The notes below the pieces were generated by a model, which did not search any database, was not told where the DNA came from, and saw only the letters and a list, made by a program, of their open reading frames with translations. The position numbers were made by a program, and so were the translations under genes. From Alphaproteobacteria bacterium (GTDB taxonomy: Bacteria; Pseudomonadota; Alphaproteobacteria; MPNO01; UBA830): a stretch of 64,000 nt of DNA. Below, one piece after another: positions 2,081 through 20,590 of the stretch. Numbering within the stretch: the stretch's first letter is position 1; every line of letters starts with the position of its first letter. The DNA lies in NCBI GenBank assembly GCA_965243135.1, contig OZ251539.1:384001-448000 (forward strand). The letters run 5' to 3'.

Positions 2081-2421
2081 CGGACCGATGGGTCTTCGCA
2101 ATGCAAACCAGAAAGCCGTGCAACCGGCTCCGACGCGACCCTCTGGAGCAGAGAGCCGCTTCGTGCCTAACCGCCTCCCCGCAGGCCCGACCATTGGAAC
2201 GGAAACGGCAAGCCGCCAAGGCGAGCCCGAAGTGTTATGATGCTGCAAGTCGAGTACTTACCTGAAAGACATCCCGCCGAGGGCGTTCTTCTACCCCATC
2301 CGAACTCGGGAGATAAGTCGTTATTTGTCCGAAACCGGCAGATAGTCAGTTCCATGTGTCTCAGGAAACGGCTTGCGCCGTTTGTGTTTCGCAAAGCCGC
2401 AAGGCCGACGGAGGTTGCAAC

Positions 2422-4533
2422 ATGAGGATTCGTTCCCGTGAATTACTGCGGCTGGTTGCGATCTTCGTCTCGACGGCAGCGGTCGCAGGGGCGGCGGATC
2501 GGCTTGCTGCCCAGAAACTTGGCGAACCCGCCGCGAAACCCGAAACCGGAATTGCGCTGCCTGACCGCCGCCCGCCGCCGACAACCCAACAGATGCCGGA
2601 CGATGCGGCAGTTGTCGAAATTGAACGCCGCTTCATCGAACTCCAGAACGAAGACATCGAACTTAGGAAGGAAAACAACGAACTCAGGAAGGAAATTCTC
2701 CTGGGCCGCAGCAAATTGGTCGACTGGTGGCTTGCCGCAGTTGCCGTGCTGCTGACCACGTTCGGCGTTATTCTCGCCATTGCCGGTTTTTTCGGTTTCA
2801 GGCGATTTCGCGAAATCGAGAAGGAGGCGAGGGAGAGCGTGAGCGCGGCCGAGCGACAATTCGAAAAGGCTGCGACCCTCGTTGACAACATCAAGACAAC
2901 GAAACAACAGGCCGACTTTATTCTCGGTAGCCTAAAGGAAACTACTTCGGAATTCGTTCGCGACAATCCGGAAAGAGCGGACGAAGTCGCAAGAAGCGTT
3001 CGGGAAAATCCGATGGCGACCTTAGTGGATCGGGCGATCGCAGACGCCATCTCGCTTCAGGGATCGGAAGATTTTGAGGCGGCAATCGAAAAATGGCGAT
3101 CGATTGCCAACCTTTCGGAAGGGACCGATCGAGGCCTCGCGGCGCGGTCGTGGTTTTCCGTCGGATATCTGTGTCAGGAAATTTCCGACACCGAAGCGGC
3201 GATAATGGCCTATGACAGAGCCCTGCAAATGAACCCTGGTTCGGCCGCTGCCTACAACAACCGCGGCAACGCCAATTGCGATCTGGGACTGCACGAAGAG
3301 GCCCTCGCGGATTACGGCGCGGCGATCCGGCTCAGCCCGGACGATGCCGCTGCCTACTACAACCGCGGCGCCGCCAAGAGCGATCTGGGACTGCACGAAG
3401 AGGCCCTCGCGGATTACAGCGAGGCGATCCGGCTCAAGCCGGACTATGCCGAAGCGTACAACAACCGCGGCAACGCCAAGAAAGATCTGGGACTGCACGA
3501 AGAGGCCCTCGCGGATTATAGCGAGGCAATCCGGCTCAAGCCGGACTATGCCGAAGCGTACAGCAACCGCGGCATCGCCAAGAAAGATCTGGGACTGCAC
3601 GAAGAGGCCCTCGCGGATTATAGCGAGGCAATCCGGCTCAAGCCGGACTATGCCGAAGCGTACAGCAACCGCGGCGTCGCCAATTGCGATCTGGGACGGC
3701 ACGAAGAGGCCCTCGCGGATTACGGCGAGGCGATCCGGCTCAAGCCGGACTATGCCGAAGCGTACAACAATCGCGGCAATGCCAAGAGCGATCTGGGACG
3801 GCGCGAAGAGGCCCTCGCGGATTACGGCGAGGCGATCCGGCTCAGGCCGGACTTTGCCGAAGCGTACAACAACCGCGGCATCGCCAGGAGAAATCTGGGA
3901 CAGCACGAGGAGGCCCTCGCGGATTACGGCGAGGCGGTCCGGCTCAAGCCGGACGATGCCGTTGCCTACTGCAACCGAGGCGTCGCCAAGAGCGATCTGG
4001 GACGGCACGAAGAGGCCCTCGCGGATTACGGCGAGGCGATCCGGCTCAAGCCGGACTATGCCGAAGCGTACAACAACCGCGGCAACGCCAAGAAAGATCT
4101 GGGACTGCACGAAGAGGCCCTCGCGGATTACGGCGAGGCGATCCGGCTCAAGCCGGACGATGCCGAAGCGTACAACAACCGCGGCAATGCCAAGAGCGAT
4201 CTGGGACGGCGCGAAGAGGCCCTCGCGGATTACGGCGAGGCGATCCGGCTCAAGCCGGACGATGCCGAAGCGTACAACAACCGAGGCGTCGCCAAGAGCG
4301 ATCTGGGACGGCACGAAGAGGCCATCGCGGATTACGGCGAGGCGGTCCGGCTCAGCCCGGACTTTATCTCTACATATTACAATCGGGGGCGGGCAAATAT
4401 GGAATTGGGACATGCGAGCAAAGCGCGGCAAGACTTCATGACAACGATGGCCTTGGCTCAAGAAAAAGGCGACGAGAAACTTGCCCGTGCCGCGAGAGAA
4501 GCCCTTGGAACATCGCTCGACGAAAACGAATGA
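2422..4533 (+). CDS. Membrane-anchored tetratricopeptide repeat protein
   Basis: Signal peptide, coiled coil, TM segment (WWLAAVAVLLTTFGVILAIAGFFG), then about 12-13 34-aa TPRs (AEAYNNRGxAxxDLGxHEEALADYxEAIRLKPD). GGAGG RBS before ATG 2422. Confidence 0.9.
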   Translation: MRIRSRELLRLVAIFVSTAAVAGAADRLAAQKLGEPAAKPETGIALPDRRPPPTTQQMPDDAAVVEIERRFIELQNEDIELRKENNELRKEILLGRSKLVDWWLAAVAVLLTTFGVILAIAGFFGFRRFREIEKEARESVSAAERQFEKAATLVDNIKTTKQQADFILGSLKETTSEFVRDNPERADEVARSVRENPMATLVDRAIADAISLQGSEDFEAAIEKWRSIANLSEGTDRGLAARSWFSVGYLCQEISDTEAAIMAYDRALQMNPGSAAAYNNRGNANCDLGLHEEALADYGAAIRLSPDDAAAYYNRGAAKSDLGLHEEALADYSEAIRLKPDYAEAYNNRGNAKKDLGLHEEALADYSEAIRLKPDYAEAYSNRGIAKKDLGLHEEALADYSEAIRLKPDYAEAYSNRGVANCDLGRHEEALADYGEAIRLKPDYAEAYNNRGNAKSDLGRREEALADYGEAIRLRPDFAEAYNNRGIARRNLGQHEEALADYGEAVRLKPDDAVAYCNRGVAKSDLGRHEEALADYGEAIRLKPDYAEAYNNRGNAKKDLGLHEEALADYGEAIRLKPDDAEAYNNRGNAKSDLGRREEALADYGEAIRLKPDDAEAYNNRGVAKSDLGRHEEAIADYGEAVRLSPDFISTYYNRGRANMELGHASKARQDFMTTMALAQEKGDEKLARAAREALGTSLDENE
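3244..4365 (+). repeat. About 11 near-identical 102-bp tandem repeats encoding TPRs
   Basis: gaagaggccctcgcggatta...atccggctcaagccggac recurs every 102 bp. Confidence 0.9.
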
Positions 4534-5560
4534 TGTACACGCCCGGCGCTGCGGATCCCGGCGAGCTTCGGCAGCGGACTCCGAAAACATCCCCCTCTTT
4601 CAATTCAGAAACGCGACGCAAGCGGTCGGAATCATCGGACGCCCGCTCGCGAATGCGCAGCTGCCCGAACAGTTGAAACGCCTGAACGGAAGGCGATGGC
4701 GTTTCGCCGAATGGAGCATGTTCGCTTGAAGAACGAGTGCGAAGTGGCACCCGAAGTTTTGTGCCGCGGAGACGCGGCTCGCCCGAGTGCCGCTGGAGAA
4801 GGAGTGCTCGTGGGTGAATGACGAGAGCTGGGACAGCGGCCCCGCAGCCGGGTGGTCAATCGGGGATCTCGACGGAGCGGAGATCAGTCGCACCGTCGAG
4901 GAGGCGGTCCGCCGCCGACGGCTATCGGATCCGGAGACCCGGGAACCACCCGGCATGCTGCGCGCTCTGGGGCTTCTCGTCGACGATGCCCCGCGGCGCG
5001 CGAGCGTCGTGCTGTTCGGGCGCGCTGAACGCCCGATGATGCCGCGATGCCTGTGCGCTCGCATACGCGGCCGTTCCGAGTATCTGGACGACCGGCGGTT
5101 CAACGGCAACGTCTTCACGCTTCTTGCAAAGGCGGAGCGATTCCTGCTCGATACGCTGCCGATAGCGGGCAGGTTCGAGGCCGGACGATTCGATCGGATC
5201 GACGAGCCGCTGTACCCGCCGCTCGCGACACGCGAGGCTCTCGTGAACGCCTTTTGCCATCAGGACTACGCGATGCGCGGCGGCCTCGTGAACGTGACGG
5301 TCTACGACGACCGCCTGGAGATCGCGTCCTCCGGCAATCTGGCTTCCGGGTCGAGTCCGGGAAAACCGTTCGCGCCGCACGAGCACCTGCCGCCGAACCC
5401 GCGGATCGCCCGCACCTTGCATCTGCGGGGCGTTATCGAGGCGCGCGGAGGCGGAATTCCGAGGATGGCGGAATGGACCTCCTTGGCGGGGCAGCCGCGC
5501 CCGGAATTCGTGGAAAGCGACGATGTCTTGATGGTCCGGTTTCGACGCGGCCGGGCGTAG
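4533..5560 (+). pseudogene. Degenerate AlbA/Schlafen-HATPase_c_4 type ATP-binding protein
   Basis: 4787-5560 carries YPPLATREALVNAFCHQDY...VYDDRLEIASSG...NPRIA...GVIEARGGGI. The N-terminal part is broken and no C-terminal HTH is seen. Confidence 0.6.
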
Positions 5561-5627
5561 TTTCCACCCCACAGGCGCACGCTGCCCCACGGATCCGCAC
5601 GCTCGCGGCGCATTTTCGCGAACATAC

Positions 5628-6112
5628 CAAACGCTCATGATCGGAGCCTGCTCGCCCCGTAGCATGTAACTTTGGGGGTGGTTCTCCCGGCCTCGCGCCA
5701 TGCGCCGACATAACCGTTCCGCGTTCGGGCGTCGAGGCGCGAAGACAGGGCTATACGGGGCTGCCCTCAGTGTCACGCTCCTCTCGAACGGCGAGCGCCG
5801 CCGCGAAAAAATCTCGCGGAACGGTTTCGTGTGGCCGGCAGATCAGGGTAGTTACACAACAACAAACGCTCATGATCGGAGCCTGCTCACCCCGTAGCAT
5901 GTAACTTTGGGGGTGGTTCTCCCGGCGTCGCGCCGCTATCATGCGCCCACATAACCGTTCCGCGTTCGGGCGTCGCGGCGTGAAGACAGGGCTATACGGG
6001 GCAGCCCTCAGCGTCACGCTCCTCTCGAACGACCAGCGCCGCCGCGAAAAATCTTCGATTCGCGGAATGGTTTTTTGCGGCCGGCAGCTCGGAGGTAGTT
6101 ACACAGCAAACG
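5628..6112. repeat. Tandem direct duplication of a ~235-244-bp non-coding unit
   Basis: CAAACG boundaries at 5628, 5863 and 6107. The two units align throughout (atgatcggagcctgctc...gcatgtaactttgggggtggttctcccggc...gacagggctatacgggg...ggtagttacac) with scattered substitutions and indels. Confidence 0.9.
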
Positions 6113-6219
6113 AAGGTCTTTTTCGGCCGGGCGTCTGGACATCCGGAATTTTTTTGCCCGTCGGGGCATGTCATGATTCTTTCCGCGCCGTGCTAGAAGA
6201 AGGTCAAGGCGGTAACAGA

Positions 6220-7443
6220 ATGGCCAGCATGCTGCTTTCCCGACCGGCTGCCTCTTCGGCCGATCCGCTCCCTGTCGCGGACATCCAGACCGGGCGCGCG
6301 ATCTATCTCGACTACGCCGCGACGACGCCGGTAGATCCTTCCGTCGCCAAGACAATGGCTGGATTCCTCACGGTCGACGGCGATTTCGGCAATCCCGCCT
6401 CGACCACCCACGAATTCGGCCGGGTTGCGGCAGACGCCGTTGAGGATGCCCGCGGGGAAGTCGCGAAGCTGCTTGCGGCAAAGCCTCGGGAAATCGTCTG
6501 GACCTCCGGCGCCACCGAAGCGATCAATCTCGCCATGAAGGGAACCGCGCTTGCCCGCGGGGGCCGCGGCGCGCACATCGTCACATCGGCTCTGGAACAC
6601 AAGGCGGTCCTGGACACGGCGGCCTGGCTCGAATCCCAGGGTTTCGACGTCGACCGCATCCGACCCGGCGGCGGAACGGTCACCGCCGAGAGTCTTGCCG
6701 AGGTCTTGCGACCGGACACCGTCCTCGTATCGCTGATGCACGTCAACAACGAGACCGGAACCGTCACCGATATCGCGGAACTCGGTTCCCTGATTCGGGA
6801 GCACGGAGCTTTGTTTCACGTGGACGCGGTGCAAAGCGCCGCCCGGCTTCCTCTCGACGATATTGCCGCCGCAGCCGATCTGATCTCGATCAGTGCGCAC
6901 AAGATGTACGGGCCAAAGGGAATCGGCGCGCTTCACGTTCGCGGACGCCTCGCCGCCGAACTGGAGCCCCTGATGCACGGAGGCGGACACGAACGCGGAT
7001 TGCGCCCGGGAACGCTCCCGGTGCACCAGATCGTCGGCATGGGGCACGCAGCCCGACTTGCGCTCCAGCGGCGCGATAGCGACACGGAACGCGTCGGCGC
7101 GCTCGATGAGCGGCTCCGCGACCACATCGAACGGATCGAGGGCGCCGAGATCAACGGGAACCCCGATTGGCGCGTCCCCGGCATTCTCAGCGTTCATTTT
7201 CCGGGCGTCGAGGCTGAATCGCTGATGGTCGCGCTCGACAATCTTGCGGTCTCCTCAGGTTCCGCCTGCACGTCGGCCGATGTCGAGCCGTCGCATGTCC
7301 TGCGCTCTCTCGGCTACGACGCCGAACGCGCGCTTTCGTCGGTGCGCATAAGCTTCGGGCGGTTCACGACCGCCCGTGAGATCGACTGCGCCGGAGAACT
7401 GCTTCGGGAAACGGTAACAATCCTTCGGAGAATTGCACGATGA
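6220..7443 (+). CDS. dndA: Cysteine desulfurase (DndA/IscS-like)
   Basis: IYLDYAATTP, FGNPAS, WTSGATEA, MHVNNETG, HVDAVQ, SAHKMYGPKG (PLP lysine), SSGSACTS (catalytic Cys). ATGA overlap with the dndC-like gene. Confidence 0.85.
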   Translation: MASMLLSRPAASSADPLPVADIQTGRAIYLDYAATTPVDPSVAKTMAGFLTVDGDFGNPASTTHEFGRVAADAVEDARGEVAKLLAAKPREIVWTSGATEAINLAMKGTALARGGRGAHIVTSALEHKAVLDTAAWLESQGFDVDRIRPGGGTVTAESLAEVLRPDTVLVSLMHVNNETGTVTDIAELGSLIREHGALFHVDAVQSAARLPLDDIAAAADLISISAHKMYGPKGIGALHVRGRLAAELEPLMHGGGHERGLRPGTLPVHQIVGMGHAARLALQRRDSDTERVGALDERLRDHIERIEGAEINGNPDWRVPGILSVHFPGVEAESLMVALDNLAVSSGSACTSADVEPSHVLRSLGYDAERALSSVRISFGRFTTAREIDCAGELLRETVTILRRIAR

Positions 7444-8615
7444 CCGCCACTCGGGACAATGCCGTCGCGACTCTTCCTGATCGACTGGACGCAATCCTCT
7501 GCACGCTCCGGAAGGAGTACCGGAGGAGGCATCGGCATCCTTGGATCGTCGCTTATTCGGGCGGGAAGGATTCCACTTTGCTGCTGCAATTCGTCTGGGA
7601 AACCGTTGCCGGACTTGCGGAGGCGGAACGCAAGCGGCCGGTGTTCGTCGTCGGAAACGACACGCTCGTGGAATCCCCCCTGGTCATCCGGCACCTCCGG
7701 GACTCGCTGGAGACTGTCGGTGCCGCCGCCGAGCGCGAGGGCCTTCCGCTCGAAACCGAAATCACCGAGCCATGCATCGACCAGACTTTCTGGGTCAACG
7801 TCATTGGCCGCGGGTACATCCCTCCGACCAGGAACTTCCGCTGGTGCACCGACAGGATGAAGATCGTACCGACCAACCGGTTGCTGGAACAGGTGGTCCG
7901 TGAAACCGGAGGAGCGATTCTCCTGATCGGCAGCCGCAGGGCCGAGTCGGACAACCGCAAGCGGGCGATGGACCGCCGGAAAGTTTCCGCCCTGCGCATG
8001 AACCCGCACAGCTCCGTCGCCGGATGCAGGATGTTCGCTCCGCTCGCGGACCTCTCCGACGACGATGTGTGGATGACGCTGATGCAACGCAAACCGCCGT
8101 GGGGCGGGACGCATCGACGGTTGATCACGCTCTACAGGAACGCGGGCGGCGGGGAATGCCCTCTGGTGATGACGAAAGAACAGGCTCCGTCCTGCGGAAC
8201 CTCTTCGCCGCGTTTCGGCTGCTGGACCTGCACCGTCGTAACCAAGGACCGCAGCCTCCGCGGGCTGATCGAATCCGGACATGCGGAGGCGGCGAAGATG
8301 GAGGCTCTCGGAGATTTCCGGGAGTGGCTGGTCGAGACTCGCGAGAACAATGCGAACCGGCTGCCGGTCCGGAGGAACGGGAACGCGAAGCGGCGGGCCG
8401 ATGGATCGACGGTCTTCGGCCCGTTCAGGCTGGAAGTCCGGAAGGAAATTTTGAAACGCTTGCGCGATCTTGAAACGGAAATCGGGGAAGATCTCATCCT
8501 TCCTGCGGAAGTCGAATGCATCGAAGACATGTGGTGGCGCGACGAAATCCGCGAGAACGCGCGACAGGCTCTCGACCGGCGCATGTTCGCCGACGCCGAG
8601 GAAGTCGCCGCATGA
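7440..8615 (+). CDS. dndC: DndC-like PAPS-reductase-family sulfurtransferase
   Basis: WIVAYSGGKDS (PP-loop), DTLVESP, FWVNVIGRGY.PPTRNFRWCTDRMKI, ECPLV...PSCG...RFGCWTCTVV.KDRS, GPF: DndC signatures. Confidence 0.88.
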   Translation: MTATRDNAVATLPDRLDAILCTLRKEYRRRHRHPWIVAYSGGKDSTLLLQFVWETVAGLAEAERKRPVFVVGNDTLVESPLVIRHLRDSLETVGAAAEREGLPLETEITEPCIDQTFWVNVIGRGYIPPTRNFRWCTDRMKIVPTNRLLEQVVRETGGAILLIGSRRAESDNRKRAMDRRKVSALRMNPHSSVAGCRMFAPLADLSDDDVWMTLMQRKPPWGGTHRRLITLYRNAGGGECPLVMTKEQAPSCGTSSPRFGCWTCTVVTKDRSLRGLIESGHAEAAKMEALGDFREWLVETRENNANRLPVRRNGNAKRRADGSTVFGPFRLEVRKEILKRLRDLETEIGEDLILPAEVECIEDMWWRDEIRENARQALDRRMFADAEEVAA

Positions 8616-10381
8616 TCAGGGTTACCTCTAAGGTTTCGCTCATTTCCGAGGTGCTGGACTCGGGGCGGCTCGAGGTTCCGTGGCATCAGCGTTACTACGA
8701 CTGGAAGGAGGAGCAGGTCGGCGATCTGCTCTTCGACCTCAGGGACGCCGTGGGCGCCGGCAAGTCGTGCTACTTCCTCGGGTCGATCATGTTGGTCAAG
8801 ATGCCCGGCGGAAGACTGCGGCGGATCAACGACGGCCAGCAGCGCCTGATCACGCTGTCCCTGATCGTCGCCGCGCTTTGCCGCCGGTTCGCACGGAGGC
8901 AGCCTCGCGACGGGAAACGGGAAATGCTCGGGCTGCGTGTGCTGTTCGAACGCTCGCCGAACGAGACCTCCCAGCTGGCGCAGGCGTCGAGATACACGCC
9001 GCGGATTGAACCGCCGAGAAACGACAAGTCGCGCTACGTCCAAGTCATTCGCGGGCACGACATCGGGACGAACGGTCTCCTCACCGCCGCGTGGAGCGTG
9101 ATCGAAATCTTCGTCGACGTGATGAGCACGGCGGACGCCGAGGCGTTCTTCGACTTTCTCATGCAGAAGGTGGAAGTGTCCGTTCTGGACATACCGGCGG
9201 ACGTCGACGCGAATTCCGTCTTCGAGGCGCTGAACGCGCGCGGCAAGCCGCTCGACGACGTCGATCTGATACGGAACCGGCTGTATTCGTATTTCTCGGG
9301 GCCGGAGGAATCGACCCGCCGCGAGACGGTTCACGAGAACCTGGAACGCACCCTCGTGATCGGCCGCCTCGCCAGCAAGGTGCAGGAGTATTTCCGCTGC
9401 TACCTGCAGTGCCGTTACGGCTATCTGCAAAAGGCGCGGTTCTACCGGGACGCGCGCAACAACATTGAAAAAGCGATCGGTTCGCAAAATGCGGCTGATT
9501 ACATCTTTGAGCTCGTCGAAGGGCTGGGGAGAGAGGAGGGGATCGAGCTGTTCCGGACGATCACCTCCACGCGTCCCAACCCGAACTTCGAGAAGCTTTT
9601 GCCGACGGCCTCCGCGAAACGCGGACCGACCGTTCTGTTGGGAGAACTGCAGGGCTACAAGGTGTCGCATCCGTTGGTGTTCGCGTTGCTGCATCGCTTC
9701 ATCGACGGAAACGACCGGAATGCCAAGCGGCGAATCTGGCAGGCGGCGCTGCGCAGCCTGAAAAACCTGTCGTCGTTCGTGATGCGCACTGCCTTTGCCG
9801 CGCCGAAATTCGAGCCGTCCAAGTTCGAAGCCGCTTTCGCGAACATGGCGAAGAGCGTGTTCGAGGGCGACGACTTCCAGTCTCTCGACATCCTCGACGA
9901 TCTTGAGGCGAACGACGAATACAGCGTCATGAACGATGCGAACTTCGTCCGGCGCATGACCGATATCGAGTTCCGCGACGCGAAGAAGGCAAGGCGTTAC
10001 CTGTTCGGCATCAACGCCAGAAACCAGCCGGGGTCGGGGGTGCTGAGAGAAGACCGCTGCAGCCTGGAGCATGTGCTGCCGCAGTCCGAAGACCACTGGG
10101 TGGGATGGCCGGAATTCGGCGATCCGGAACGTTGGGTTCACCGGGCCGGCAACATGGTCGTGGTCGCGGACAAGGAGAACAGGCCGGGTGCCGACTACAA
10201 TCGGGATTACGCCGCGAAGAAGCGGGTCTTTGCCGGCAGCGCGTTGCTCATGCCGCGCGAGGTGGCGGAAGCCTGCGAAGAATGGACGTCCGAGGTGGTG
10301 GAGCGGCGTTCTGCGGAGCTGGCGAAAGAAGCCGCAGAAACCTGGCAGTTCGTGAACAACCAGGGGCATAGAAGGAAATGA
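8612..10381 (+). CDS. DUF262 + DUF1524 (HNH-like) protein, GmrSD/SspE-like nuclease
   Basis: VPWHQRYYDW, YFLGSI, INDGQQRLITL, VFEALNARGKPL..DLIRN (DUF262); SLEHVLPQS...GNMVVV...N (DUF1524). ATGA overlap with the dndC stop. Confidence 0.88.
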   Translation: MIRVTSKVSLISEVLDSGRLEVPWHQRYYDWKEEQVGDLLFDLRDAVGAGKSCYFLGSIMLVKMPGGRLRRINDGQQRLITLSLIVAALCRRFARRQPRDGKREMLGLRVLFERSPNETSQLAQASRYTPRIEPPRNDKSRYVQVIRGHDIGTNGLLTAAWSVIEIFVDVMSTADAEAFFDFLMQKVEVSVLDIPADVDANSVFEALNARGKPLDDVDLIRNRLYSYFSGPEESTRRETVHENLERTLVIGRLASKVQEYFRCYLQCRYGYLQKARFYRDARNNIEKAIGSQNAADYIFELVEGLGREEGIELFRTITSTRPNPNFEKLLPTASAKRGPTVLLGELQGYKVSHPLVFALLHRFIDGNDRNAKRRIWQAALRSLKNLSSFVMRTAFAAPKFEPSKFEAAFANMAKSVFEGDDFQSLDILDDLEANDEYSVMNDANFVRRMTDIEFRDAKKARRYLFGINARNQPGSGVLREDRCSLEHVLPQSEDHWVGWPEFGDPERWVHRAGNMVVVADKENRPGADYNRDYAAKKRVFAGSALLMPREVAEACEEWTSEVVERRSAELAKEAAETWQFVNNQGHRRK

Positions 10382-10509
10382 TCGGGCGCGGCAGGCGGTG
10401 TTGACGGCCGAGCCGCAGTTTCGGATTTGCAGAGATCGCCAAAAACTGGTTTCTTGGACGGAAGCGGGCAAGTAAGGTGCGGCCCGCTAATCCCGAAAGG
10501 AAGGACACT

Positions 10510-11037
10510 ATGAGAAACAAGTGCATGATCGAGGCTGCCCTGATTGCGGCGTTCGTTCTTGGAGCGTGCAATCATCAGTATCGTCCCAAGGTGATACCTG
10601 TCACGACACAGTTCGATCCTCATGAGGTTAGTTATATCAACGACGTGGGGGATAATGAGATAAAAGGGCAAGCGTTTTTGAGGCAGAAAGGTGGTGGGAT
10701 AGTTACATGCGCTGGGTTCGAAGTCTACCTTATTCCAAGAGGGGCTTATTCGAAGGAAAGGTTTTTTATTATCTACGGGACAACGGAAAGGGTCGCGCAT
10801 GCGCAATTGAGAAGGAGTAGCGTTCCAAGTGACCCAGAACCTATGTACTTGCAAATGGTAAAATCTACCAAGTGCGACGCACAAGGTGATTTTACTTTCT
10901 CTGGTGTAGCTGACGGTAGTTATTTTGTCGCAACGACCGTGTATTGGCAGGTGGGTAAAATTGAGCAGGGATTCCGACTGATGTCGCCGGTTACAGTTAA
11001 GGGTGAAGAAACAAGGGCTCTCATCATCTCTATTTGA
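10510..11037 (+). CDS. Putative lipoprotein with beta-sandwich domain
   Basis: Lipobox LGAC; IKGQAFLRQKGGGIVTCAG, CDAQGDFTFSGVADGSYFV; AT-richer than its flanks. Confidence 0.7.
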   Translation: MRNKCMIEAALIAAFVLGACNHQYRPKVIPVTTQFDPHEVSYINDVGDNEIKGQAFLRQKGGGIVTCAGFEVYLIPRGAYSKERFFIIYGTTERVAHAQLRRSSVPSDPEPMYLQMVKSTKCDAQGDFTFSGVADGSYFVATTVYWQVGKIEQGFRLMSPVTVKGEETRALIISI

Positions 11038-11303
11038 GGGGATTTCCAAGCAGGTTATTGAGAAACGGGCCTCATAGCGAGGCGCGGCCGCTTTCGTTCA
11101 TCTTGTTCCTCGCGTCATCGCCTGCCGGATGGGTTTTCCTTATTCATCGTTTCCGGTCATGGTGCTTCCACAGAGCTGATGCCGGGGCCGGGGATTTATC
11201 CTGGACACCGACATACCGAAGTCGTACGGCTTGATCAGGGAACAACGGGTCGGCGCTAACCGCGAAAATTGGACAGATGATTGACGGGATTGATAGGATG
11301 TGA

Positions 11304-13013
11304 ATGGCAAGAGATTTCGGGGAAGGAAATATGCGACGGTTTCGTTTTTCCGCGATGGTGCCGTTTGCGGCGGCAGCGGTGCTGTCTGCTGCGACCTCCG
11401 TCAATGCGATAGTCGATAGTGAAAACGAACTTTGGAGCGCCGTGCGGATATCGGGCAATCCCGATACCGCCCAGCGGTCGCCTGCCGTGGGCGCGAACCC
11501 GAACGTTCCGCAAAGCGCTGGCCGAACCGCGGTTCGTCTGGCGTCCGATACGACTTCGCCAGCGGTGCGGCCGGGCGGCGGCGCACCGGAACGCAAGGCC
11601 GATGTTGCGAACGGAAAAGGCGAAACTTCTCTCCGCCTCGTGGCCGAAGCGCATCGATCCTCCGCTGGCTTGCTATGGAGTGCCGCTCGGACGCCGGGCA
11701 ATCTGGAAATCGTCCGCCGGCTGCTTGCCTCGGGCGTGAATCCGAACATTCCGGACGATGCGGGCCGAACAGCGGTTCATCGGGCAGCGAGCGGCGGCGG
11801 TCCTCGGATACTCGCTGCGCTGCTTCGCGCGGGCGGCAAACCGAACGTTCGTGATCGCGACGGCAACGCGCCGTTGCACATCGCCATCAAGGCGGGCGGG
11901 AGCGAAGGCAAAGTCGAGGCCGTCGAGGCGCTTCTGGCGGCCGGAGCGGATCCATGCCTCAAGGATGCAACGGGGCTGACACCGTACCGCATGGCCGCGG
12001 ACGGCGGCCCCATCCGCCGCGCTCTTGGCCGGGCCGGGGGCAACGAGTGGACGTGCGGGAGAAACGGAAAGCGCACCATGCGGGTTGCGGCTCGCACCAA
12101 CGTGAGGTCGGGACCGGGACCGCACCACGCCAGGATCGGAACGCTAGACGCTGGCTACGAGGTCAAGGTGGCGGGGAAAATCGGTGACTGGTTGCGCATT
12201 GAGATGCCGGGCGGAGAAGGATATGTCCGCGTCGAGCGGATGATCGATACGGCGTTCGTCGCCAGCCTTGAGCCGAAATGCGATGGATTTTCCCACGAGT
12301 GCTTGGATTGCGGGCTCTTGCCTGACAGGCCCGCATGCCGGATCTGCCGGGACTTCCCCGTTTGCTGGAGACAGCTCTCCAATCGTCCGGAATGCTATCT
12401 GCTGGTTCCCAATAATGATGGTCGCAATCGGTCCCTGAATTGGTCGGGATCCTGTTCCGGCGGCGTCGCCAACGGCCAAGGGAAGCTATCGTCGTCACGG
12501 AACTCGATTGTAGAGACCGGAATGCTCGTGGGCGGCAAGAAACATGGACCATGGATCGGTGAATTTTTGAGTTCTTTTTCCTCGGCACTAGATTTTGCTA
12601 CCTATGTGGACGGAAAGAGAGATGGGCTGTGGATCAGCAGGTCCAAGCTCAGGATAGGCAAGAGCAACGAGGTGAGCACGAATATTAGCGCCTATGTGAA
12701 CGGCAAGGAAGATGGAAAATCATCGTTCAGTGTGAGAAATGGTGGTGCCTCCATGGGCGCTTATGTAAACGGCAAGAGGCACGGACAATGGGTCGATGTA
12801 TCCAACTCCCTCGTCACCGTAGGCGCCTATGTAAACGGCAAGAGGCACGGACGATGGGTTGAACTGTTTGGATTAAGCCGACCCGGCGGAGTAGTCTCGA
12901 CAGGTGTCTATGTGGACGGTCGGAAGCACGGACGATGGAAGAGACGCTCGATCACGACCTGCGAAATCGTCGAATACGAATCGGGCTGGTTTGCAAGAAA
13001 AAGAAAATGCTGA
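11304..13013 (+). CDS. Secreted ankyrin + SH3b + MORN-like repeat protein
   Basis: Signal peptide; ankyrin repeats (GRTAVHRAA, GNAPLHIAI, LLAAGADP); SH3b (TNVRSGPG...IGTL...GDWLRI); Cys-rich linker; GAYVNGKRHGxW repeats. Confidence 0.8.
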   Translation: MARDFGEGNMRRFRFSAMVPFAAAAVLSAATSVNAIVDSENELWSAVRISGNPDTAQRSPAVGANPNVPQSAGRTAVRLASDTTSPAVRPGGGAPERKADVANGKGETSLRLVAEAHRSSAGLLWSAARTPGNLEIVRRLLASGVNPNIPDDAGRTAVHRAASGGGPRILAALLRAGGKPNVRDRDGNAPLHIAIKAGGSEGKVEAVEALLAAGADPCLKDATGLTPYRMAADGGPIRRALGRAGGNEWTCGRNGKRTMRVAARTNVRSGPGPHHARIGTLDAGYEVKVAGKIGDWLRIEMPGGEGYVRVERMIDTAFVASLEPKCDGFSHECLDCGLLPDRPACRICRDFPVCWRQLSNRPECYLLVPNNDGRNRSLNWSGSCSGGVANGQGKLSSSRNSIVETGMLVGGKKHGPWIGEFLSSFSSALDFATYVDGKRDGLWISRSKLRIGKSNEVSTNISAYVNGKEDGKSSFSVRNGGASMGAYVNGKRHGQWVDVSNSLVTVGAYVNGKRHGRWVELFGLSRPGGVVSTGVYVDGRKHGRWKRRSITTCEIVEYESGWFARKRKC

Positions 13014-13393
13014 CAGAGGTTCCCGGATCCGCATGGTCCGGCGTCTGCCGTCGTCGGCGGTCGAGCTTTCGGAAGCGGAACGGATAGCGCGAGGTTTGCA
13101 GGGATGCGCATCGCAGCCAGAGACGAAACAAGGGCATTGCGCCGCGACGTTCGCGCTCAATGTGAAACCGTGCGTCGGCGCGCCTTTCAGGCACCGTTAG
13201 CGCGTTCGGGCAACCTCTCGGCGATCTCCCCGCTTTCGGGCGGCCGGTTGCGGTCTTTTGATCGGGAGGCCCCGGACCTGTTCGCTTGCTGCACGGTGAA
13301 TTCCGTCCGAATCGGAGCGAGACGCTCCGTCATCGTTCCTGCTGGCTTCCCTGGGCGTTTGAGAGAGAGAAAGGTTTCCTGGATATCTCTCGG

Positions 13394-14776
13394 ATGACCG
13401 ACTCGAGCGACGCTTTGCAGTTGCGCCATCGCGCCGAAAAACGGCTCGGGGTGCCGGCCTCATTGCACGACTACCAGTGGGAAGGCGTCTCCTTTCTGTA
13501 CCGGTCCCGCTCCGCGCTTCTCGCCGACGAGATGGGCCTCGGGAAGACGGTGCAGACTTCGGTTGCGCTCGCGCTTCTCCTCAACGGACGAAGCGGCGTC
13601 GGCCGCGTCCTGATCGTCGCGCCGGCGTCCCTGACGACGAACTGGATGGACGAACTCGAAACCTGGGCGCCCACCATCGCCGCCCGGCGCATGCAGGGAA
13701 ACGCCCGCGCCCGCGAGGCGTTCTACCTGCTCCCGATCCCGGTCCTCGTCGGATCCTACGAGCAGATCCGGCAAGACGGCCTTGACCGTATCCCGGCCAA
13801 CACCTTCGACCTCGTCGTCCTCGACGAGGCACAACGGATCAAGAACAGGAACTCCGCCACGGCGCTGGCCTGCCGGCTGCTGCCGCGGACGCGTTCTTGG
13901 GCGCTTTCGGCCACCCCGCTCGAGAACGACCCCAGCGACGTGGTCTCGATCCTGAGTTTTCTCGATCCGGAAATCAGACCCGGCGAATCCCCGTTTCGCC
14001 TGCGCGCCCGTCTCGACGCGATGATGCTGCGACGGCGCAAGCTTGAGGTCCGGGCCGAGTTGCCGCCGGTCATCCTTCAGGATCTCAGGCTCGATCTCTC
14101 CGGGGTTCAGCGCAATGCCTATGACGAGCTGTGGGAAAAGCGCGCGGAGACGATCAGAGAAGGAGCGGAGGGCGGCGACCCCGGCGCGGCCATACTCGGC
14201 CTGATCACGCGACTCAAGATGGTCTGCAATTTCGTCGAGGATGCCTCTTCCAAATTCGAGGCGCTCGAGGTGATCGCCGAAGGGGCGGGGAAGTCCGGCA
14301 GGATTCTCGTGTTCTCGCAGTTCGTGAGAACGCTGCAGTGGGCTTCCGACCGGTTGAAGCTTCCACACGGATTTCTTACGGGGGCGATGACGCCCGCCGA
14401 AAGGCAGGCGGCCATCGACGAATTCAGGCACGGGCCGGCGCCGAGAGTCCTTTTGGTATCCCTCCGCGCCGGCGGCGTGGGCCTCAATCTGGGCGAGGCC
14501 ACCCATGTGGTCCTCTTCGACAGGTGGTGGAACCCGGCCGTCGAGAACCAGGCGATCTACCGCGCGCACCGCTTCGACCGCGAAGAGCCGTTGCATGTCG
14601 TCCGATTTCTGGCTACGGATACGATCGAAGAGCGCATCTCTGAGATCCTGGAGCAAAAGGAGCTTCTGTTCGACGAGGTCGTGGAGACGGCCGGGGCCGA
14701 AGCGCGGCGCTTTACCCGCAATGAATTGATCCGTATTCTTGAGATCTCGAATCTCTTTCCGGCGTCGGAGGCGTAA
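13394..14776 (+). CDS. SNF2-family helicase/ATPase (compact, about 460 aa)
   Basis: LHDYQWEGV, LLADEMGLGKT, VLDEAQRIKN, LSATPLEN, LVFSQF, AGGVGLNL, DRWWNPAVENQAIYRAHR. Confidence 0.92.
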   Translation: MTDSSDALQLRHRAEKRLGVPASLHDYQWEGVSFLYRSRSALLADEMGLGKTVQTSVALALLLNGRSGVGRVLIVAPASLTTNWMDELETWAPTIAARRMQGNARAREAFYLLPIPVLVGSYEQIRQDGLDRIPANTFDLVVLDEAQRIKNRNSATALACRLLPRTRSWALSATPLENDPSDVVSILSFLDPEIRPGESPFRLRARLDAMMLRRRKLEVRAELPPVILQDLRLDLSGVQRNAYDELWEKRAETIREGAEGGDPGAAILGLITRLKMVCNFVEDASSKFEALEVIAEGAGKSGRILVFSQFVRTLQWASDRLKLPHGFLTGAMTPAERQAAIDEFRHGPAPRVLLVSLRAGGVGLNLGEATHVVLFDRWWNPAVENQAIYRAHRFDREEPLHVVRFLATDTIEERISEILEQKELLFDEVVETAGAEARRFTRNELIRILEISNLFPASEA

Positions 14777-14779
14777 GTC

Positions 14780-15607
14780 ATGGCGAAGATCGTCGCATAC
14801 AGGGAAATACCGCTCGACAGCTTGACCATAGGCAAGGGACAAGCGGGTACGCATACGGAGTCGCGCATCAAGGAGCTCGATGAACTGGCCGAGAGCATTA
14901 AGGTGCAGGGTTTGCTGCAACCGATTGTCGTCTGCGAGGCACGGGAAGCCGGAAAATGGGAAATTCTTGCCGGTCAGCGGCGTTTCCTCGCGCACAGGCA
15001 TCTGAAAAGGGAGACGATATCCGCTGCGGTTCTCGACGGCCGCATCGACCCGACCGACGCGAAGGCCATTTCGGTCACCGAGAACCTGGTAAGGCTTCAG
15101 CTTTCCGGGAAGGAACTAACGGACAGTATCCGGGTTCTGTACAATAGGTACGCAAGCGTAAGAGCAGTGGCGGAGGCGACCGGCATTCCCCAAGCGAAAA
15201 TCAGACGCTACCTGAAATCCGACCGGCTCATTCCTGAGTTGAAGAGAATGGTCGACGATAACGAAATCGATATCAACGCTGCCTTGGATGCCCAAGACGC
15301 TGCCGACGACGACGGACAACCGGATCCCGACGTCGCCGTTAAGTTGGCGTGGGAAATGAAGCCGATGACGAACGTGCAGCGGCGGAAGCTCGCCGATAAG
15401 CGCAGGGAAAATCCGGAGAAGCCGATCGACGACGTTATCGAGGAAGCGAAGACCGGGGTGAAAGTGATCCAGGTCGTCGCGACAGTGACGCAGACAACGC
15501 ACAGCGCCATCCGGAGATACGCGAGAGAAGAAAAAACCAACCAGGATGAGGCTGTGGTCGCCCTTATCGAAGAGGCGTTGACCGGCCACGGTCTCTTGGA
15601 ACAGTAG
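14780..15607 (+). CDS. ParB/Spo0J-family protein
   Basis: LDELAESIKVQGLLQPIVV, EILAGQRRFLA, TENLVRLQLS, HTH (SVRAVAEATGIPQAKIRRYL), possible C-terminal RHH. Confidence 0.85.
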   Translation: MAKIVAYREIPLDSLTIGKGQAGTHTESRIKELDELAESIKVQGLLQPIVVCEAREAGKWEILAGQRRFLAHRHLKRETISAAVLDGRIDPTDAKAISVTENLVRLQLSGKELTDSIRVLYNRYASVRAVAEATGIPQAKIRRYLKSDRLIPELKRMVDDNEIDINAALDAQDAADDDGQPDPDVAVKLAWEMKPMTNVQRRKLADKRRENPEKPIDDVIEEAKTGVKVIQVVATVTQTTHSAIRRYAREEKTNQDEAVVALIEEALTGHGLLEQ

Positions 15608-16333
15608 ATGCTGCCGGGACTGAACGCGCTCGAGCTCGGGCGCCTTCGGCTGTCGGTCGGGTACGGGACGCACAAGAAGGGGCGCCCGTTATCCCCGGCC
15701 GAGGTCGGCCAACTGCTTCGCCAAGCCCGCAGCGCCGGAGTCACTCTCAAGGATTGCGCGAAAGCGATCCAGCTGAACGGGACGGGCCATATCGGCCGTT
15801 TTCTTCGCATTCTGGAATTGCCCCAGGACGTCCTTCACCTGGTGGATTGGGGGCATCCCGGCGACGGCGTCGCGTTTTCCTGCGCCGTGGAAATGACAAG
15901 TCTGGAGAACGACGACGACAAGCGTGCCGTCGCCCGATCGATTCTTGCCCATGGTCTGGAAAGCAAGGAGGTTCGTCAGGTTGCGCAACTCCGAAAACGT
16001 TCCGGGCGTTTCATCGGCGAATGCGTTGAAGAGATCCTAGGCATGCGTCCGACGGTCGAGAAGCGTTATGTCTTCATCGGGGTGGTCACTGAAGAAAGCC
16101 TTGCAAATGCTCTCGGCGAGCTCACGCAGCGCGAACGGGATGCGATTTTGGATTCCGGTATCGAACGGCTTGAGCTTTCCGGCGGCTCCGGCCGGCTCGG
16201 GCAAAGATTTTTCACCCTTGTCGGCGATGACCGGTTCGGGGCCTCGATGGAGCGCATCGGCAAGGACAACATTGAGACGATGCTTCTGGCGCAGATTGGC
16301 GAGGCGATCGACGATGCCGCCGCCCATTGTTGA
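15608..16333 (+). CDS. ParB/KorB-like HTH protein lacking the CTPase domain
   Basis: LSPAEVG...GVTLKDCAKAI...HIGRFLRILELPQDVLHLV resembles the central HTH of ParB. Starts immediately after the previous stop (TAGATG). Confidence 0.55.
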   Translation: MLPGLNALELGRLRLSVGYGTHKKGRPLSPAEVGQLLRQARSAGVTLKDCAKAIQLNGTGHIGRFLRILELPQDVLHLVDWGHPGDGVAFSCAVEMTSLENDDDKRAVARSILAHGLESKEVRQVAQLRKRSGRFIGECVEEILGMRPTVEKRYVFIGVVTEESLANALGELTQRERDAILDSGIERLELSGGSGRLGQRFFTLVGDDRFGASMERIGKDNIETMLLAQIGEAIDDAAAHC

Positions 16334-17348
16334 CGTGTTCGCCAGCGGAACTGTTCGCCTCGGTTCGAAGGTCGTGTGCGACGGATACGCGGAGGGATAT
16401 CCGTTCAGGGTTCAGACGCATGTGCACGAAGACCACATGTCGGAATTCAACAGGAGCAAAGGCGAGCAGGACTTTCTGCTGAGTCCCGAGACGCATGAAC
16501 TGTTGATTGCGGAGCGCAATGCGGACCTCGAATATCGCGACAATTTCATCCGGGTCGCGCGCGGCGCCGAGCGGGAACTCGACGACGGTTCAAGGCTCTC
16601 GCTCGTTGCGTCCAACCACATGCTCGGAGCTTGCCAAGTGGCTCTGGAACTCCCCGACGGAATGCGGATCGGCTATTCCAGCGACTTCGGATGGCCGCTC
16701 GACGAAGTCATCGCGGTGGACGAGCTTGTGGTCGACAGCACATATGGCAGCCCCCGGAGAAGCGTGCGTGGTTATACCCAGGACGAAGCCGAAGCGAGCC
16801 TTTTCGAGATCGTTCACGAACGCCTTCGACATGGCTCCGTGCATATCCATGCCTATTCGGGAACGATCGAGCGGGTTCTGTCCGTTCTCGGAGATAACGT
16901 TGGCGTTCCCATCGTGGCCTCCCGGCAACTGATCCAGAGAGTCGAGGTATATCAGAAGCATGGATTCGCGCCGGGAAGCCTGGAGGAGCTCCGGTCGGAC
17001 GAGGCCCGGCGCGCGATAGCGCACGGCTCCTATGTCCGGCTTTATTCGAAGGGCGACGGCTTCGGCAACGAGCGCCTGGAAGGCACGACGATCACCTGCA
17101 GCGCCTATATGGTGGACACCCGCAACCCGTTGATGATTTTTTCGGACCGGTCCTACAGAGTCGCATTGTCCAACCATGCGGATTTCGAGGAAACGCTCGC
17201 TTACGTCGAAGCGACCGGCGCCAAGCGGGTCGTTACGGACAACACGCGGAGTCATGGCTGCGAACTCGCCATAGCCATCAATGAGCGGCTCGACGACGTG
17301 CGGGCCGTTCCGTCCAGCAACTGTCCGGCTTCTTCCCGGAATACGTGA
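16314..17348 (+). CDS. Metallo-beta-lactamase fold beta-CASP nuclease
   Basis: THVHEDH, NHMLGA, YSSDF, VVDSTYG, LSNHADF; overlaps the upstream gene by 20 bp. Confidence 0.85.
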   Translation: MPPPIVDVFASGTVRLGSKVVCDGYAEGYPFRVQTHVHEDHMSEFNRSKGEQDFLLSPETHELLIAERNADLEYRDNFIRVARGAERELDDGSRLSLVASNHMLGACQVALELPDGMRIGYSSDFGWPLDEVIAVDELVVDSTYGSPRRSVRGYTQDEAEASLFEIVHERLRHGSVHIHAYSGTIERVLSVLGDNVGVPIVASRQLIQRVEVYQKHGFAPGSLEELRSDEARRAIAHGSYVRLYSKGDGFGNERLEGTTITCSAYMVDTRNPLMIFSDRSYRVALSNHADFEETLAYVEATGAKRVVTDNTRSHGCELAIAINERLDDVRAVPSSNCPASSRNT

Positions 17349-17571
17349 CGGGTTCCCCGAGATCGCTGTCTGCTGCGATGCGGACGTTCCCATGGGCACC
17401 CGGAAAACGGATCCTGGCAACGAACCGGCCGCCGGCACCGATGGCCGGTCTTCCAGCTACAGGTGAAAATTGGAAGATTTACCGGGTGGGTCGGGCGAAT
17501 TGTTCCGTTCGCGGCAACGGGAGCGATGCAAAACTGACCCCCAGGTCCAGACGGAACGAAGGAGGCAATTC

Positions 17572-20452: not shown

Positions 20453-20590
20453 GATAGTCACTGCTGCATGGCGACTTCGTCGAGGTTGGGCCGAATCGGC
20501 GCGTGCGCGTCGGCGCAGTCCTGATCGTCGGCGTTTTCCGGCTTTCTGGAACGGGCCGGAACGATCCGGCAAATTTGTCGCGACAGTTCA

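Follow-up and report, generated by a model that had tools for sequence, protein, structure and literature searches.

A horizontally exchanged seven-gene cassette of DndA, a short DndC, a DndI-like nuclease and a four-gene module: a candidate for DndD/E-independent DNA-sulfur modification and restriction

Introduction

Three overlapping genes encoding a DndA-like desulfurase, a DndC-like enzyme and a DUF262/DUF1524 nuclease raise the question of whether such a trio can mark and restrict DNA by itself. They lie in the window analyzed here, a 64-kb stretch of DNA (contig positions 384001-448000). Compared with canonical DndABCDE, the window cassette is without the DndD-DndE pair, which the available part of a published comparative work describes as an obligate core (PMC10853773). 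A sequence-only reading of the window had proposed a minimal three-gene system in which a Dnd-type writer is coupled directly to the nuclease and the DUF262 protein may replace DndD. These proposals were followed up with profile searches, structure prediction and surveys of related loci and genomes.

Results

Gene structure of the core trio

The three genes were confirmed as intact open reading frames on the + strand, and the DNA letters themselves show the two ATGA overlaps described for them, at 7440-7443 and 8612-8615. The first gene (6220-7443) encodes a DndA-type cysteine desulfurase of 407 aa (Aminotran_5, 8e-78), the second (7440-8615) a short DndC-type PP-loop sulfurtransferase of 391 aa, and the third (8612-10381) a DndI-like GmrSD-family protein of 589 aa with a DUF262 NTPase and a DUF1524 HNH-type nuclease domain. 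Profile matches from Pfam, PADLOC and NCBIfam upheld the original family assignments. The desulfurase matched the PADLOC profiles of SspA (1.2e-144) and DndA (2.1e-142), both in the range of about 1e-144, and the DndA/IscS component of the canonical Dnd system is present by the PADLOC DndA profile. It stayed under the equivalog cut-offs for IscS, NifS, and DndA (for DndA, TIGR03235, 403.8 vs 480). The PLP lysine K228 and the catalytic C350 belong to the positions with at least 95% conservation, of which the window protein retains 107 out of 108.

Conservation of the trio in related loci

The survey covered 80 loci related to the window trio, spread over at least 11 phyla. A full-length nuclease gene lies directly 3' of dndC in 68 of them and a full-length dndA homologue directly 5' in 64, while all three genes are full-length in 53, and the trio thus recurs as a unit. 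In 14 loci dndA was absent within 10 kb, and in seven the nuclease match was missing or short; one locus in each group (L081 and L058, respectively) ends at a contig edge. Close homologues do not sit in dndABCDE loci, contrary to what was expected of a deletion remnant: DndE was matched in 0 of the 80 loci and DndD-C weakly in two. By gene content and conservation, the three genes form the conserved, intact core of a cassette that has been exchanged widely.

The nuclease and its predicted contact with DndC

The nuclease carries GmrSD_N (7e-24, 85.4 bits, cut-off 33.2) and GmrSD_C (5.5e-17, 62.4 bits, cut-off 23), the domain pair of GmrSD-family type IV enzymes. PADLOC ranked HEC-06 (222.6 bits) first, followed by Orf5 and the SspE N-terminus. 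The DGQQR motif at 74-78 and H487, N514, and N530 were invariant among 42 sequences. The AF2 model reached a pLDDT of 91.2, and its best PDB fold in Foldseek was DndI (9jfl, E 1.2e-15, TM 0.60), followed by SspE (7drs, E 1.6e-13) and BrxU (E 9e-5). The protein has the DndI/SspE-type architecture, a DUF262 domain with DGQQR and an HNH-type DUF1524 domain in the same overall fold.

The predicted complex of DndC and the nuclease scored 0.75, while the highest-scoring of three controls reached 0.00; this supports the direct coupling of writer and nuclease that had been proposed. Of 80 solved complexes, 58 reach 0.75, as do 2 of 110 mismatched pairs; these counts are only rough because the alignments here were our own. 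The runs shared at least 93% of contacts, the pLDDT of the partners was at least 82, and the predicted interface comprises DndC 355-389 with the invariant residues E357, I361, W365, D368, and R375. DndC is thus predicted to bind the DndI-like nuclease, in a complex that rests on a model's confidence score.

A four-gene module and an insertion downstream of the trio

The trio had been described as flanked by unrelated genes on both sides. This stood for the upstream genes and for a lipoprotein and an ankyrin gene, but not for four genes (X1-X4) at 13394-17348, which are 60-71% identical to genes directly after the trio in related loci. The first, X1 (13394-14776, + strand, 460 aa), encodes a SNF2-family helicase (SNF2-rel_dom 1e-44, Helicase_C 3e-20) that is 64-71% identical to the gene after the nuclease in L011, L015, and L050. 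Its GLGKT (48-52) and DEAQ (144-147) motifs are conserved, and the window copy is unchanged at 150 of 150 columns with conservation of 95% or more; in PADLOC, the L011 homologue matched ZorD and DpdE best. X2 (14780-15607, + strand, 275 aa) is a ParB_N-domain protein (9e-14, 51.7 bits, cut-off 26.3) with about 62% identity to its homologues in the same three loci and a conserved GQRR (65-68), deviating at 4 of 79 such columns. Its stop codon is directly abutted by the start codon of X3 (15608-16333, + strand, 241 aa), a ParB-HTH-like DNA-binding protein whose HTH_ParB match of 17.7 bits lies under the cut-off of 22.6 and whose closest cluster in the Atlas, with a score of 0.96, is "ParB HTH domain-containing protein". 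X3 is 59-66% identical to its homologues and keeps 40 of 40 conserved columns. X4 (16314-17348, + strand, 344 aa), overlapping X3 by 20 bp, is a putative nuclease of the MBL fold (beta-CASP-like) by its Atlas clusters (MBL fold / RMMBL, 0.97). Pfam gave no match to the window copy at E<=0.01, and Lactamase_B_2 matched the L011 homologue at E 1e-4, under the cut-off. The motif H36-x-H38-x-D40-H41 is conserved, 103 of 104 conserved columns are kept, and identity to homologues is 62-70%. Taken over the seven proteins of the trio and the module, almost every column with at least 95% conservation is retained, catalytic motifs included.

The complete module of SNF2 helicase, ParB_N, ParB-HTH, and MBL-type nuclease directly follows the trio in 43 of the 80 loci, and an alternative module of a GIY-YIG gene and a DndB-like gene follows it in 23. 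All or part of either module was present in 73 loci and neither in seven. The minimal three-gene system did not hold up against these counts, and by gene content the window cassette is one of seven genes, not three.

The cassette is split by a 3-kb insertion (10382-13393) with a lipoprotein-like ORF of 186 aa (10477-11037), for which Pfam found nothing, and a gene (11304-13013) for a 569-aa protein with Pfam ankyrin and SH3 domains. The distance from the nuclease to X1 is 3013 bp in the window, compared to -361 to +243 bp in 42 of 44 measured related loci, and window positions 10171-13118 have a paralogous copy at genome positions 336256-339861. The lipoprotein/ankyrin insertion is no part of the system, and because of it the trio and the module may no longer be transcribed together.

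A sister arrangement was found in metagenome loci. The order long dndC-dndD-dndE-X1-X4-dndA occurred in 4 out of 10, displayed in full by L101 and L103 and truncated on the 5' side of dndE or dndD in L097 and L099, and the order dndC-nuclease-X1-X4 occurred in three, of which two are preceded by dndA. Since canonical dndC-dndD-dndE precedes the same four-gene module, the nuclease occupies the dndD-dndE position, in agreement with the earlier idea of a DUF262 protein in place of DndD. The module cannot be the DndD/E substitute, because it pairs with canonical dndCDE too.

The short DndC clade and its chemistry

The DndC component of canonical Dnd is present, with 338.9 bits to TIGR03183 against a cut-off of 290.4, in a match that spans only model positions 10-338 of 447; the PADLOC DndC match spans 11-375 of 481. 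The enzyme is not an SspD-type PAPS reductase, scoring 24.3 bits for SspD vs 374 bits for DndC models. Its best 120 homologues are 68-81% identical and all 383-419 aa long. Short DndC proteins of this kind thus make up a conserved clade, and the trio is no deletion remnant. SGGKDS (40-45) and C136, C240, C252, C261, and C264 were invariant among 37 sequences. By profile search the protein is the sole DndC in the whole genome, and a search of 30 relatives, four of them from the same genus, gave no short DndC.

About 100 positions at the C-terminal end of the DndC models have no counterpart in the clade, whose best NCBIfam model is the unnamed PRK06850 family, under its cut-off. The best PDB folds for its AF2 model (pLDDT 71.8) are TtuA, LarE, and NcsA, PP-loop sulfurtransferases that thiolate bases or serve cofactors, some with Fe-S clusters, and no solved DndC or TdpC chain was among the fold matches. 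These features would suit a cassette of the same composition but of other chemistry, a DNA (or RNA) modification besides the backbone phosphorothioate that is read by the DndI-like nuclease. We regard this as unlikely, though worth serious consideration, since the curated DndC equivalog cut-off is exceeded, the top fold match of the nuclease is a phosphorothioate sensor, canonical dndCDE likewise precedes the same module, and the neighboring genes are all DNA-acting.

Horizontal transfer and genomic setting

At least 23 changes of phylum and at least 11 switches of accessory module were counted on the DndC tree. Such rampant transfer fits a selfish element as well, in which phosphorothioate marks serve a non-defence role (gene regulation, redox protection) and the nucleases act against cells that lose the cassette (addiction). 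The toxicity of DndI to cells without the mark, as given in the available part of PMC11662687, points the same way. We consider this reading improbable. The trio locus lies within a defence island that also encodes an HNH nuclease, a DNA methylase, and a SIR2-like protein, and the two exchanged accessory modules bear nucleases; both observations speak for defence, while being compatible with addiction as well.

Dnd and Ssp genes in the genome and in carrier genomes

Profile searches found no match to dndB, dndD, dndE, or sspB inside the 64-kb window, as had been noted from the sequence, and the only matches in the genome lie elsewhere on the contig, near 321-325 kb, 5.43 Mb, and 4.08 Mb. The best DndD match (TIGR03185), at about 324 kb and outside the window, is a fragment covering model positions 415-650 and is under the cut-off; no full-length DndD was found in the genome. 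Two orphan copies of dndE occur, at 324.6 kb and 5.43 Mb. The dndE copy at about 324 kb and the 3' third of dndD beside it are remains of another dnd locus, now decayed. That locus carries a dndA fragment of its own, with 45-50% identity to the window DndA. The presence of dndDE elsewhere in the genome, named beforehand as a finding that would refute the three-gene proposal, is thus formally true for about 324 kb and 5.43 Mb, yet it concerns a separate decayed locus and no full-length DndD. SspB (PF13182) had a single match in the genome. It belongs to an ssp locus of its own at 4.08 Mb, with sspA, sspB, sspC, and sspD, where sspC, beside sspB, is read as two ORFs. This locus could supply marks in trans.

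Most of the 45 chromosome-level carrier genomes sampled are without DndD/E anywhere. DndE gave no match in 41 and exceeded the cut-off in two, DndD exceeded it in three and not in the other 42, and SspB was absent from 31 and present in 14. By our own tally, 29 of the 45 have neither DndD/E over the cut-off nor SspB. A dependence of the trio on distant helpers, whether from the 4.08-Mb ssp locus or from the orphan copies of dndE, would find its components in this genome and in the 14 SspB carriers, but it is very doubtful in view of the carriers that do without them and of a dndD reduced to a 3' fragment and an sspC read as two ORFs. That the trio is what a deletion left of dndABCDE beside an independent type IV (GmrSD) gene, with no joint function, is scarcely credible: decayed dnd pieces about 66 kb off, a region rich in IS and repeat elements, and the frequency of stand-alone GmrSD genes, which are often alone in defence islands, would favor it, but it is contradicted by the uniformly short best 120 homologues, linkage in 68 of 80 loci over at least 11 phyla, the ATGA overlaps, the retention of all invariant residues, the predicted complex, the merely 45-50% identity of the dndA fragment at 324 kb, and the DndD/E-poor carrier genomes.

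Comparison with known systems

In the available part of PMC11662687 (PDB 9JFL), the IscS-DndBCDE-DndI system of Salmonella enterica Cerro 87 likewise has a cysteine desulfurase, a DndC-type enzyme, and a DUF262-DUF1524 protein of about 590 aa, DndI, which is a phosphorothioate-sensing nickase. The window family resembles DndI in its conserved DGQQR and HNH-type motifs and in its best solved fold match, while its cassette is without DndB, DndD, and DndE and has a DndC with about 100 fewer residues. In sequence the nuclease resembles DndI weakly (phmmer E 9e-7), over an N-terminal stretch only, and in our own reading of the alignment the position of the sensing Y25 of DndI is H25 in the window nuclease family, adjoining W24. 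While a DndC-nuclease complex is predicted for the window cassette, none is reported for DndI in the available part of the same source. Canonical DndABCDE with DndFGH shares DndA and DndC homologues with the window, and the four-gene module follows its dndC-dndD-dndE too.

SspABCD-SspE likewise combines a cysteine desulfurase, a PAPS-reductase-type enzyme, and a DUF262/DUF1524 effector, and SspE ranked second by fold. The window cassette differs in being without SspB (DUF4007) and SspC and in an effector that is about 180 residues shorter (589 aa vs PADLOC SspE models of 766-775 positions). GmrSD and BrxU are stand-alone type IV enzymes that attack modified DNA. The window nuclease has GmrSD_N and GmrSD_C in common with these and with its best PADLOC model, HEC-06, but its gene adjoins dndC in 68 of 80 loci, and gene overlap and predicted contact tie it to this modification enzyme. 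TdpABC is a thermophile system in which one DndC-like writer, without DndD/E, stands beside a restriction part of helicase and nuclease. To our knowledge, a DUF262 protein is not among its components. The likeness to the window cassette is one of concept, a DndC-like writer with a helicase and nuclease part. According to the available part of PMC12914056, phosphorothioate synthesis in TdpABC needs tdpC only.

Discussion

We favor, with moderate confidence, the view that the locus is a cassette, mobile by horizontal transfer, for DNA-sulfur (phosphorothioate-type) modification and restriction independent of DndD/E, with the trio as its intact core. The cassette probably attaches sulfur to DNA with none of the customary helper proteins, and we infer phosphorothioate chemistry on the sole basis of DndC and DndA homology. 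In the mechanism proposed here, DndA would draw sulfur from cysteine, and the short DndC, as a PP-loop, Fe-S sulfurtransferase, would activate the DNA backbone with ATP and insert the sulfur. The DndI-like DUF262/DUF1524 protein would dock onto the C-terminal helix of DndC as an NTP-driven, DNA-scanning, mark-sensing nickase; in this capacity it is proposed to hold the place of canonical DndD and DndE, and it would restrict unmarked DNA too. The module of SNF2 helicase, ParB_N, ParB-HTH, and MBL-type nuclease may act as a second, exchangeable effector or regulator linked to the mark. For its carriers, the cassette would provide discrimination of self from non-self and defence.

Gene content of the cassette

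Three intact open reading frames on the + strand were confirmed by ORF reading at 6220-10381 of the window, and the two ATGA start/stop overlaps that join them (7440-7443 and 8612-8615) were read directly from the sequence. The first gene, dndA (6220-7443), encodes a class-V aminotransferase-fold cysteine desulfurase of 407 aa, which matched the PADLOC models SspA at 1.2e-144 and DndA at 2.1e-142 and scored below all NCBIfam equivalog cut-offs. The second, a short dndC (7440-8615; 391 aa), reached 338.9 bits on the curated DndC model TIGR03183 (cut-off 290.4), covering only model positions 10-338 of 447. The third gene (8612-10381) encodes a DUF262/DUF1524 nuclease of 589 aa with GmrSD_N and GmrSD_C, for which the top PADLOC models were, in order, HEC-06, 'Orf5', and the SspE N-terminus. 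In the alignments, SGGKDS at 40-45 and five cysteines were invariant in DndC, as were DGQQR at 74-78, H487, N514, and N530 in the nuclease. The DndC of the window retains every invariant column, and of the columns conserved at ≥95% the window keeps 107 of 108 in DndA and 56 of 56 in the nuclease.

The nuclease model (pLDDT 91.2) ranked closest to DndI among solved folds (9jfl, E 1.2e-15, TM 0.60), followed by SspE and then BrxU. DndI is described in the excerpted text of PMC11662687 as a phosphorothioate-sensing nickase, partner of IscS-DndBCDE, whose ATPase is stimulated by the mark. The DndC model (pLDDT 71.8) resembles the PP-loop sulfurtransferases TtuA, LarE, and NcsA, some of which are found with Fe-S clusters. 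Foldseek returned generic PP-loop sulfurtransferases only, with DndC, SspD, and TdpC chains not among the matches, and the comparison of DndC with PDB sequences gave 0 matches at E≤0.01. Set between this generic fold and the above-cut-off score on the DndC model, it appears rather unlikely that the cassette makes another sulfur modification. A non-defence or addiction role is considered improbable.

Promoter and terminator scans of 5400-17600 stayed at chance level, with 3 promoter-like sites (2.3 expected) and 14 terminator-like sites (11.5 expected), and no RNA run among the listed runs held trio sequence words. A long TPR-repeat protein is encoded at 2356-4533. Just upstream of dndA, two tandem repeat units of ~240 bp occupy 5628-6112; dozens of copies with 83-93% identity occur in the genome, and they look like MITE-type mobile repeats. 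A contig of the sequencing run X4 (not to be confused with the gene X4) skips from 5630 to 6108, which therefore represents a near-identical strain without both units.

Recurrence and independence from DndD and DndE

When one genome per species was scanned, 568 stretches encoding a relative emerged, of which the best 80 were analysed. These loci stem from MAGs of Binatia, Gammaproteobacteria, Acidobacteriota, Chloroflexota, Thermodesulfobacteriota, Gemmatimonadota, and others, amounting to 11 named phyla, and several candidate taxa bear names that hint at sponges. In tblastn searches, a full-length nuclease gene was located directly downstream of dndC in 68 of the 80 loci, was split or partial in 5, and was absent or short in 7, one of which (L058) ends 256 bp past dndC. 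Directly upstream of dndC, dndA was full-length in 64 loci and partial in 2; the other 14, one of which is at a contig end (L081), lacked it. Both neighbours were full-length in 53 of the 80 loci, so that the proposed survey for recurrence of the trio gave a positive answer.

DndE was matched by tblastn in none of the 80 loci, and a weak match to DndD-C occurred in 2. Among the 45 chromosome-level carrier genomes, DndE had no match in 41 and passed the cut-off in 2, DndD was unmatched at 1e-10 in 34 and passed the cut-off in 3, and SspB (DUF4007) was present in 14. A tally of these tables leaves 29 of the 45 genomes with neither DndD/E over the cut-off nor SspB. Dependence of the trio on ssp or dnd genes acting in trans, for which the SspB-bearing carriers would leave room, is thus judged very doubtful. 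The DndC tree requires at least 23 changes of phylum. Recurrence, carriers poor in DndD/E, and these changes of phylum together indicate that the cassette is an exchanged unit independent of DndD/E. None of 30 genomes related to that of the window, 4 of them of the same genus, yielded the short DndC; one relative carries a canonical DndC (532 aa, 44% identity). Viral contigs held one distant relative (24% identity) and no sign of phage carriage in that collection.

In one carrier genome (G042, locus L082), a full-length DndD over the cut-off is encoded ~2 kb downstream of the trio (14548-15270 of the locus; G042:C1:1199108-1201099), with no DndE match. This exception could be an intermediate arrangement. 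With regard to habitat, runs labelled 'sponge metagenome' hold approximately half of the sampled trio words, and the long contig pieces in these runs are 95-99% alike.

Accessory modules

The sequence-only reading had proposed a minimal three-gene system with unrelated genes on both sides. Its trio and gene overlaps stood; its minimality did not, as ORF clustering identified two alternative downstream modules among the 80 loci, one of which also lies in the window itself. This module consists of X1 (SNF2 helicase), X2 (ParB_N protein), X3 (ParB-HTH-like), and X4 (MBL-fold protein), and was complete in 43 loci and partial in 7. In 23 loci it was replaced by a DndB-like gene (PF14072), preceded in 19 of the 23 by a GIY-YIG nuclease gene of ~110 aa; 2 of these 19 were checked against Pfam, both exceeding the PF20815 cut-off. 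Neither module occurred in 7 loci. Mapped on the DndC tree, module type required at least 11 switches, compared to a mean of ~20 for shuffled labels.

In the window, X1-X4 are tightly packed at 13394-17348 and 59-71% identical to the cassette genes of three related loci (L011, L015, L050), so that for these four genes the flank is homologous and not unrelated. Columns conserved at ≥95% were kept in 150 of 150 cases for X1, 75 of 79 for X2, 40 of 40 for X3, and 103 of 104 for X4. The distance from nuclease end to X1 start was measured in 44 related loci and lay between -361 and +243 bp in 42 of them; in the window it is 3013 bp, and the gap contains, besides a lipoprotein-like ORF, an ankyrin/SH3 gene (11304-13013). 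The genome has many ankyrin paralogues, of which this one is inserted mid-cassette. Read contigs of run X4 left the bins 10713-11514 and 12317-13118 uncovered, with no contig joining across the insertion, and a contig of run X6 spans the left insertion junction (10149-10565).

A paralogue of window positions 10171-13118 is located at 336,256-339,861 of the genome contig (G000:C1), with main blocks 87-92% identical. Besides the last 69 nuclease codons it comprises an ankyrin gene and a lipoprotein ORF that is broken, and it is possibly what is left of a second cassette copy. An IS-like repeat with >40 genome copies is found just upstream of it, at 334,143-335,759. Directly downstream of the cassette in the window, defence-type genes extend over 17470-25453, encoding an HNH_2 endonuclease (17470-18450), an N6_N4 DNA methylase (18756-19694), and a SIR2_2 and DUF4020 protein of 1165 aa (21956-25453).

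Predicted coupling of DndC and nuclease

DndC is predicted to bind the nuclease. Complex prediction for this pair scored 0.75, whereas the highest of 3 controls scored 0.00. Of 80 solved complexes, 58 reached the score mark, as did 2 of 110 mismatched pairs, counts that apply only approximately because own alignments were used. Runs shared ≥93% of contacts and partner pLDDT was ≥82. In the predicted interface, the conserved helix at the C-terminus of DndC (355-389) contacts the central helical part of the nuclease (246-250, 308-329, and 360-376). The score expresses model confidence; since we are aware of no comparable solved complex, it is unlikely to echo a known structure.

A metagenome scan with X4 returned 10 loci. 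The order short dndC-nuclease-X1-X4 was found in 3 of them, 2 with dndA in front. In 4 others, a long dndC was followed by dndD-dndE-X1-X4-dndA; L101 and L103 are complete, the contigs of L097 and L099 are truncated ahead of dndE or dndD, and the assignment of dndE in these loci rests on tblastn. X4 was situated beside dndA-dndE-dndD on the other strand in 2 loci on short contigs, and the remaining locus had no such genes. Since X1-X4 also follow canonical dndC-dndD-dndE, they are a general partner of DndC-type writers and hence not a substitute for DndD/E. PADLOC v2 lacks models for X3 and X4 and gave only a weak methyltransferase match for X2; X1-X4 appear to form a phosphorothioation-linked module that has not been described. 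The nuclease gene takes exactly the position of dndD-dndE in the sister arrangement. From this equivalence and the predicted complex, the DUF262/HNH protein is proposed to take over the DNA handling of DndD and DndE as well as restriction.

Other dnd and ssp genes in the genome

The window occupies 384001-448000 of one 6.1-Mb contig, and its DndC is the only one in that genome. The sequence-only reading had counted dndD and dndE elsewhere in the genome as evidence against itself; an intact dndE and, of dndD, the 3' third (model 410-659) are in fact present, in a separate decayed dnd locus ~66 kb upstream of the trio (L009; G000:C1 about 320,900-325,050). This locus further holds a DndB-like ORF of 556 aa, a dndA fragment on the minus strand with 45-50% identity to the window's DndA, and, after dndE, an ORF with double HTH and GIY-YIG. 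Its dndE and flank are duplicated at G000:C1 5,428,605-5,431,276 with 94-95% identity. That the dndD and dndE pieces at ~324 kb form the other half of the trio cluster was rejected given the opposite-strand dndA fragment and the DndB-like ORF; because it has its own dndA piece, the locus is regarded as a defunct system in its own right.

The 120 best database hits of DndC were 68-81% identical and all 383-419 aa long, so the short length is a character of the clade, and truncation of DndC by the nuclease gene was rejected on that account. It is therefore extremely improbable that the trio is a remnant next to an unrelated nuclease, even with a decayed dnd locus nearby.

A separate ssp locus is located at G000:C1 about 4,080,250-4,086,600 (L095) with a divergent sspA followed by sspB, sspC, and sspD. 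Its sspC is read as two ORFs matching model positions 1-728 and 728-1044, a split that points to a frameshift or to a fault in the assembly; a helicase-like ORF follows.

Discussion

By its sequence, the cassette is a variant of a known system type with a putative function. The proposed hybrid of a Dnd-type writer and a nuclease effector gained from the recurrence of the trio without DndD/E and from the predicted DndC-nuclease complex, and lost its claim to be minimal. Tentatively, we read short DndC and the DndI-like protein as possibly one machine, in which a single ParB-superfamily NTPase-nickase would replace DndD and DndE, guide the writer, and cut unmarked DNA. It would then be the smallest self-contained phosphorothioate restriction-modification unit, with X1-X4 as a further phosphorothioate-linked effector fitting either kind of writer. 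[quoted passage not shown]

Three activities are named as the core of phosphorothioate writing in the excerpted text of PMC12707154: an enzyme of the PAPS-reductase type, an ATPase, which is DndD or SspC, and a partner that recognises DNA, which is DndE or SspB. Excerpts of PMC12914056 name a neighbourhood of dndC, P-loop, and DUF262 as a potential new system and cite tdpC as a single-gene writer, and those of PMC6790972 mention sponge Thaumarchaeota in which dndA and dndC occur together with a dndB-like gene with DUF262/DUF1524. Beyond such passing mentions (PMC6790972, PMC12914056), no experimental study of the cassette was found in the literature excerpts searched, although supplementary tables may list such loci; it is not described in the available portions of PMC12839542 and PMC3632139. 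A search for IbrA/IbrB found only unrelated papers.

DndD-DndE are presented as the obligate core in the excerpts of PMC10853773, where their absence in about 250 taxa is put down to poor assemblies. In contrast, the DndC clade described here is intact without DndD/E in most chromosome-level carriers and across many phyla. Should the one-machine reading be true, this 'obligate core' would be dispensable. If phosphorothioate is made, the cassette would be a compact pair of writer and effector that could be rebuilt in E. coli, and it would bear on the minimal machinery and on the reading of the mark. The cassette would then also account for the phosphorothioation genes that, in the excerpted text of PMC5099237, are enriched in sponge metagenomes and termed 'not functionally complete'.
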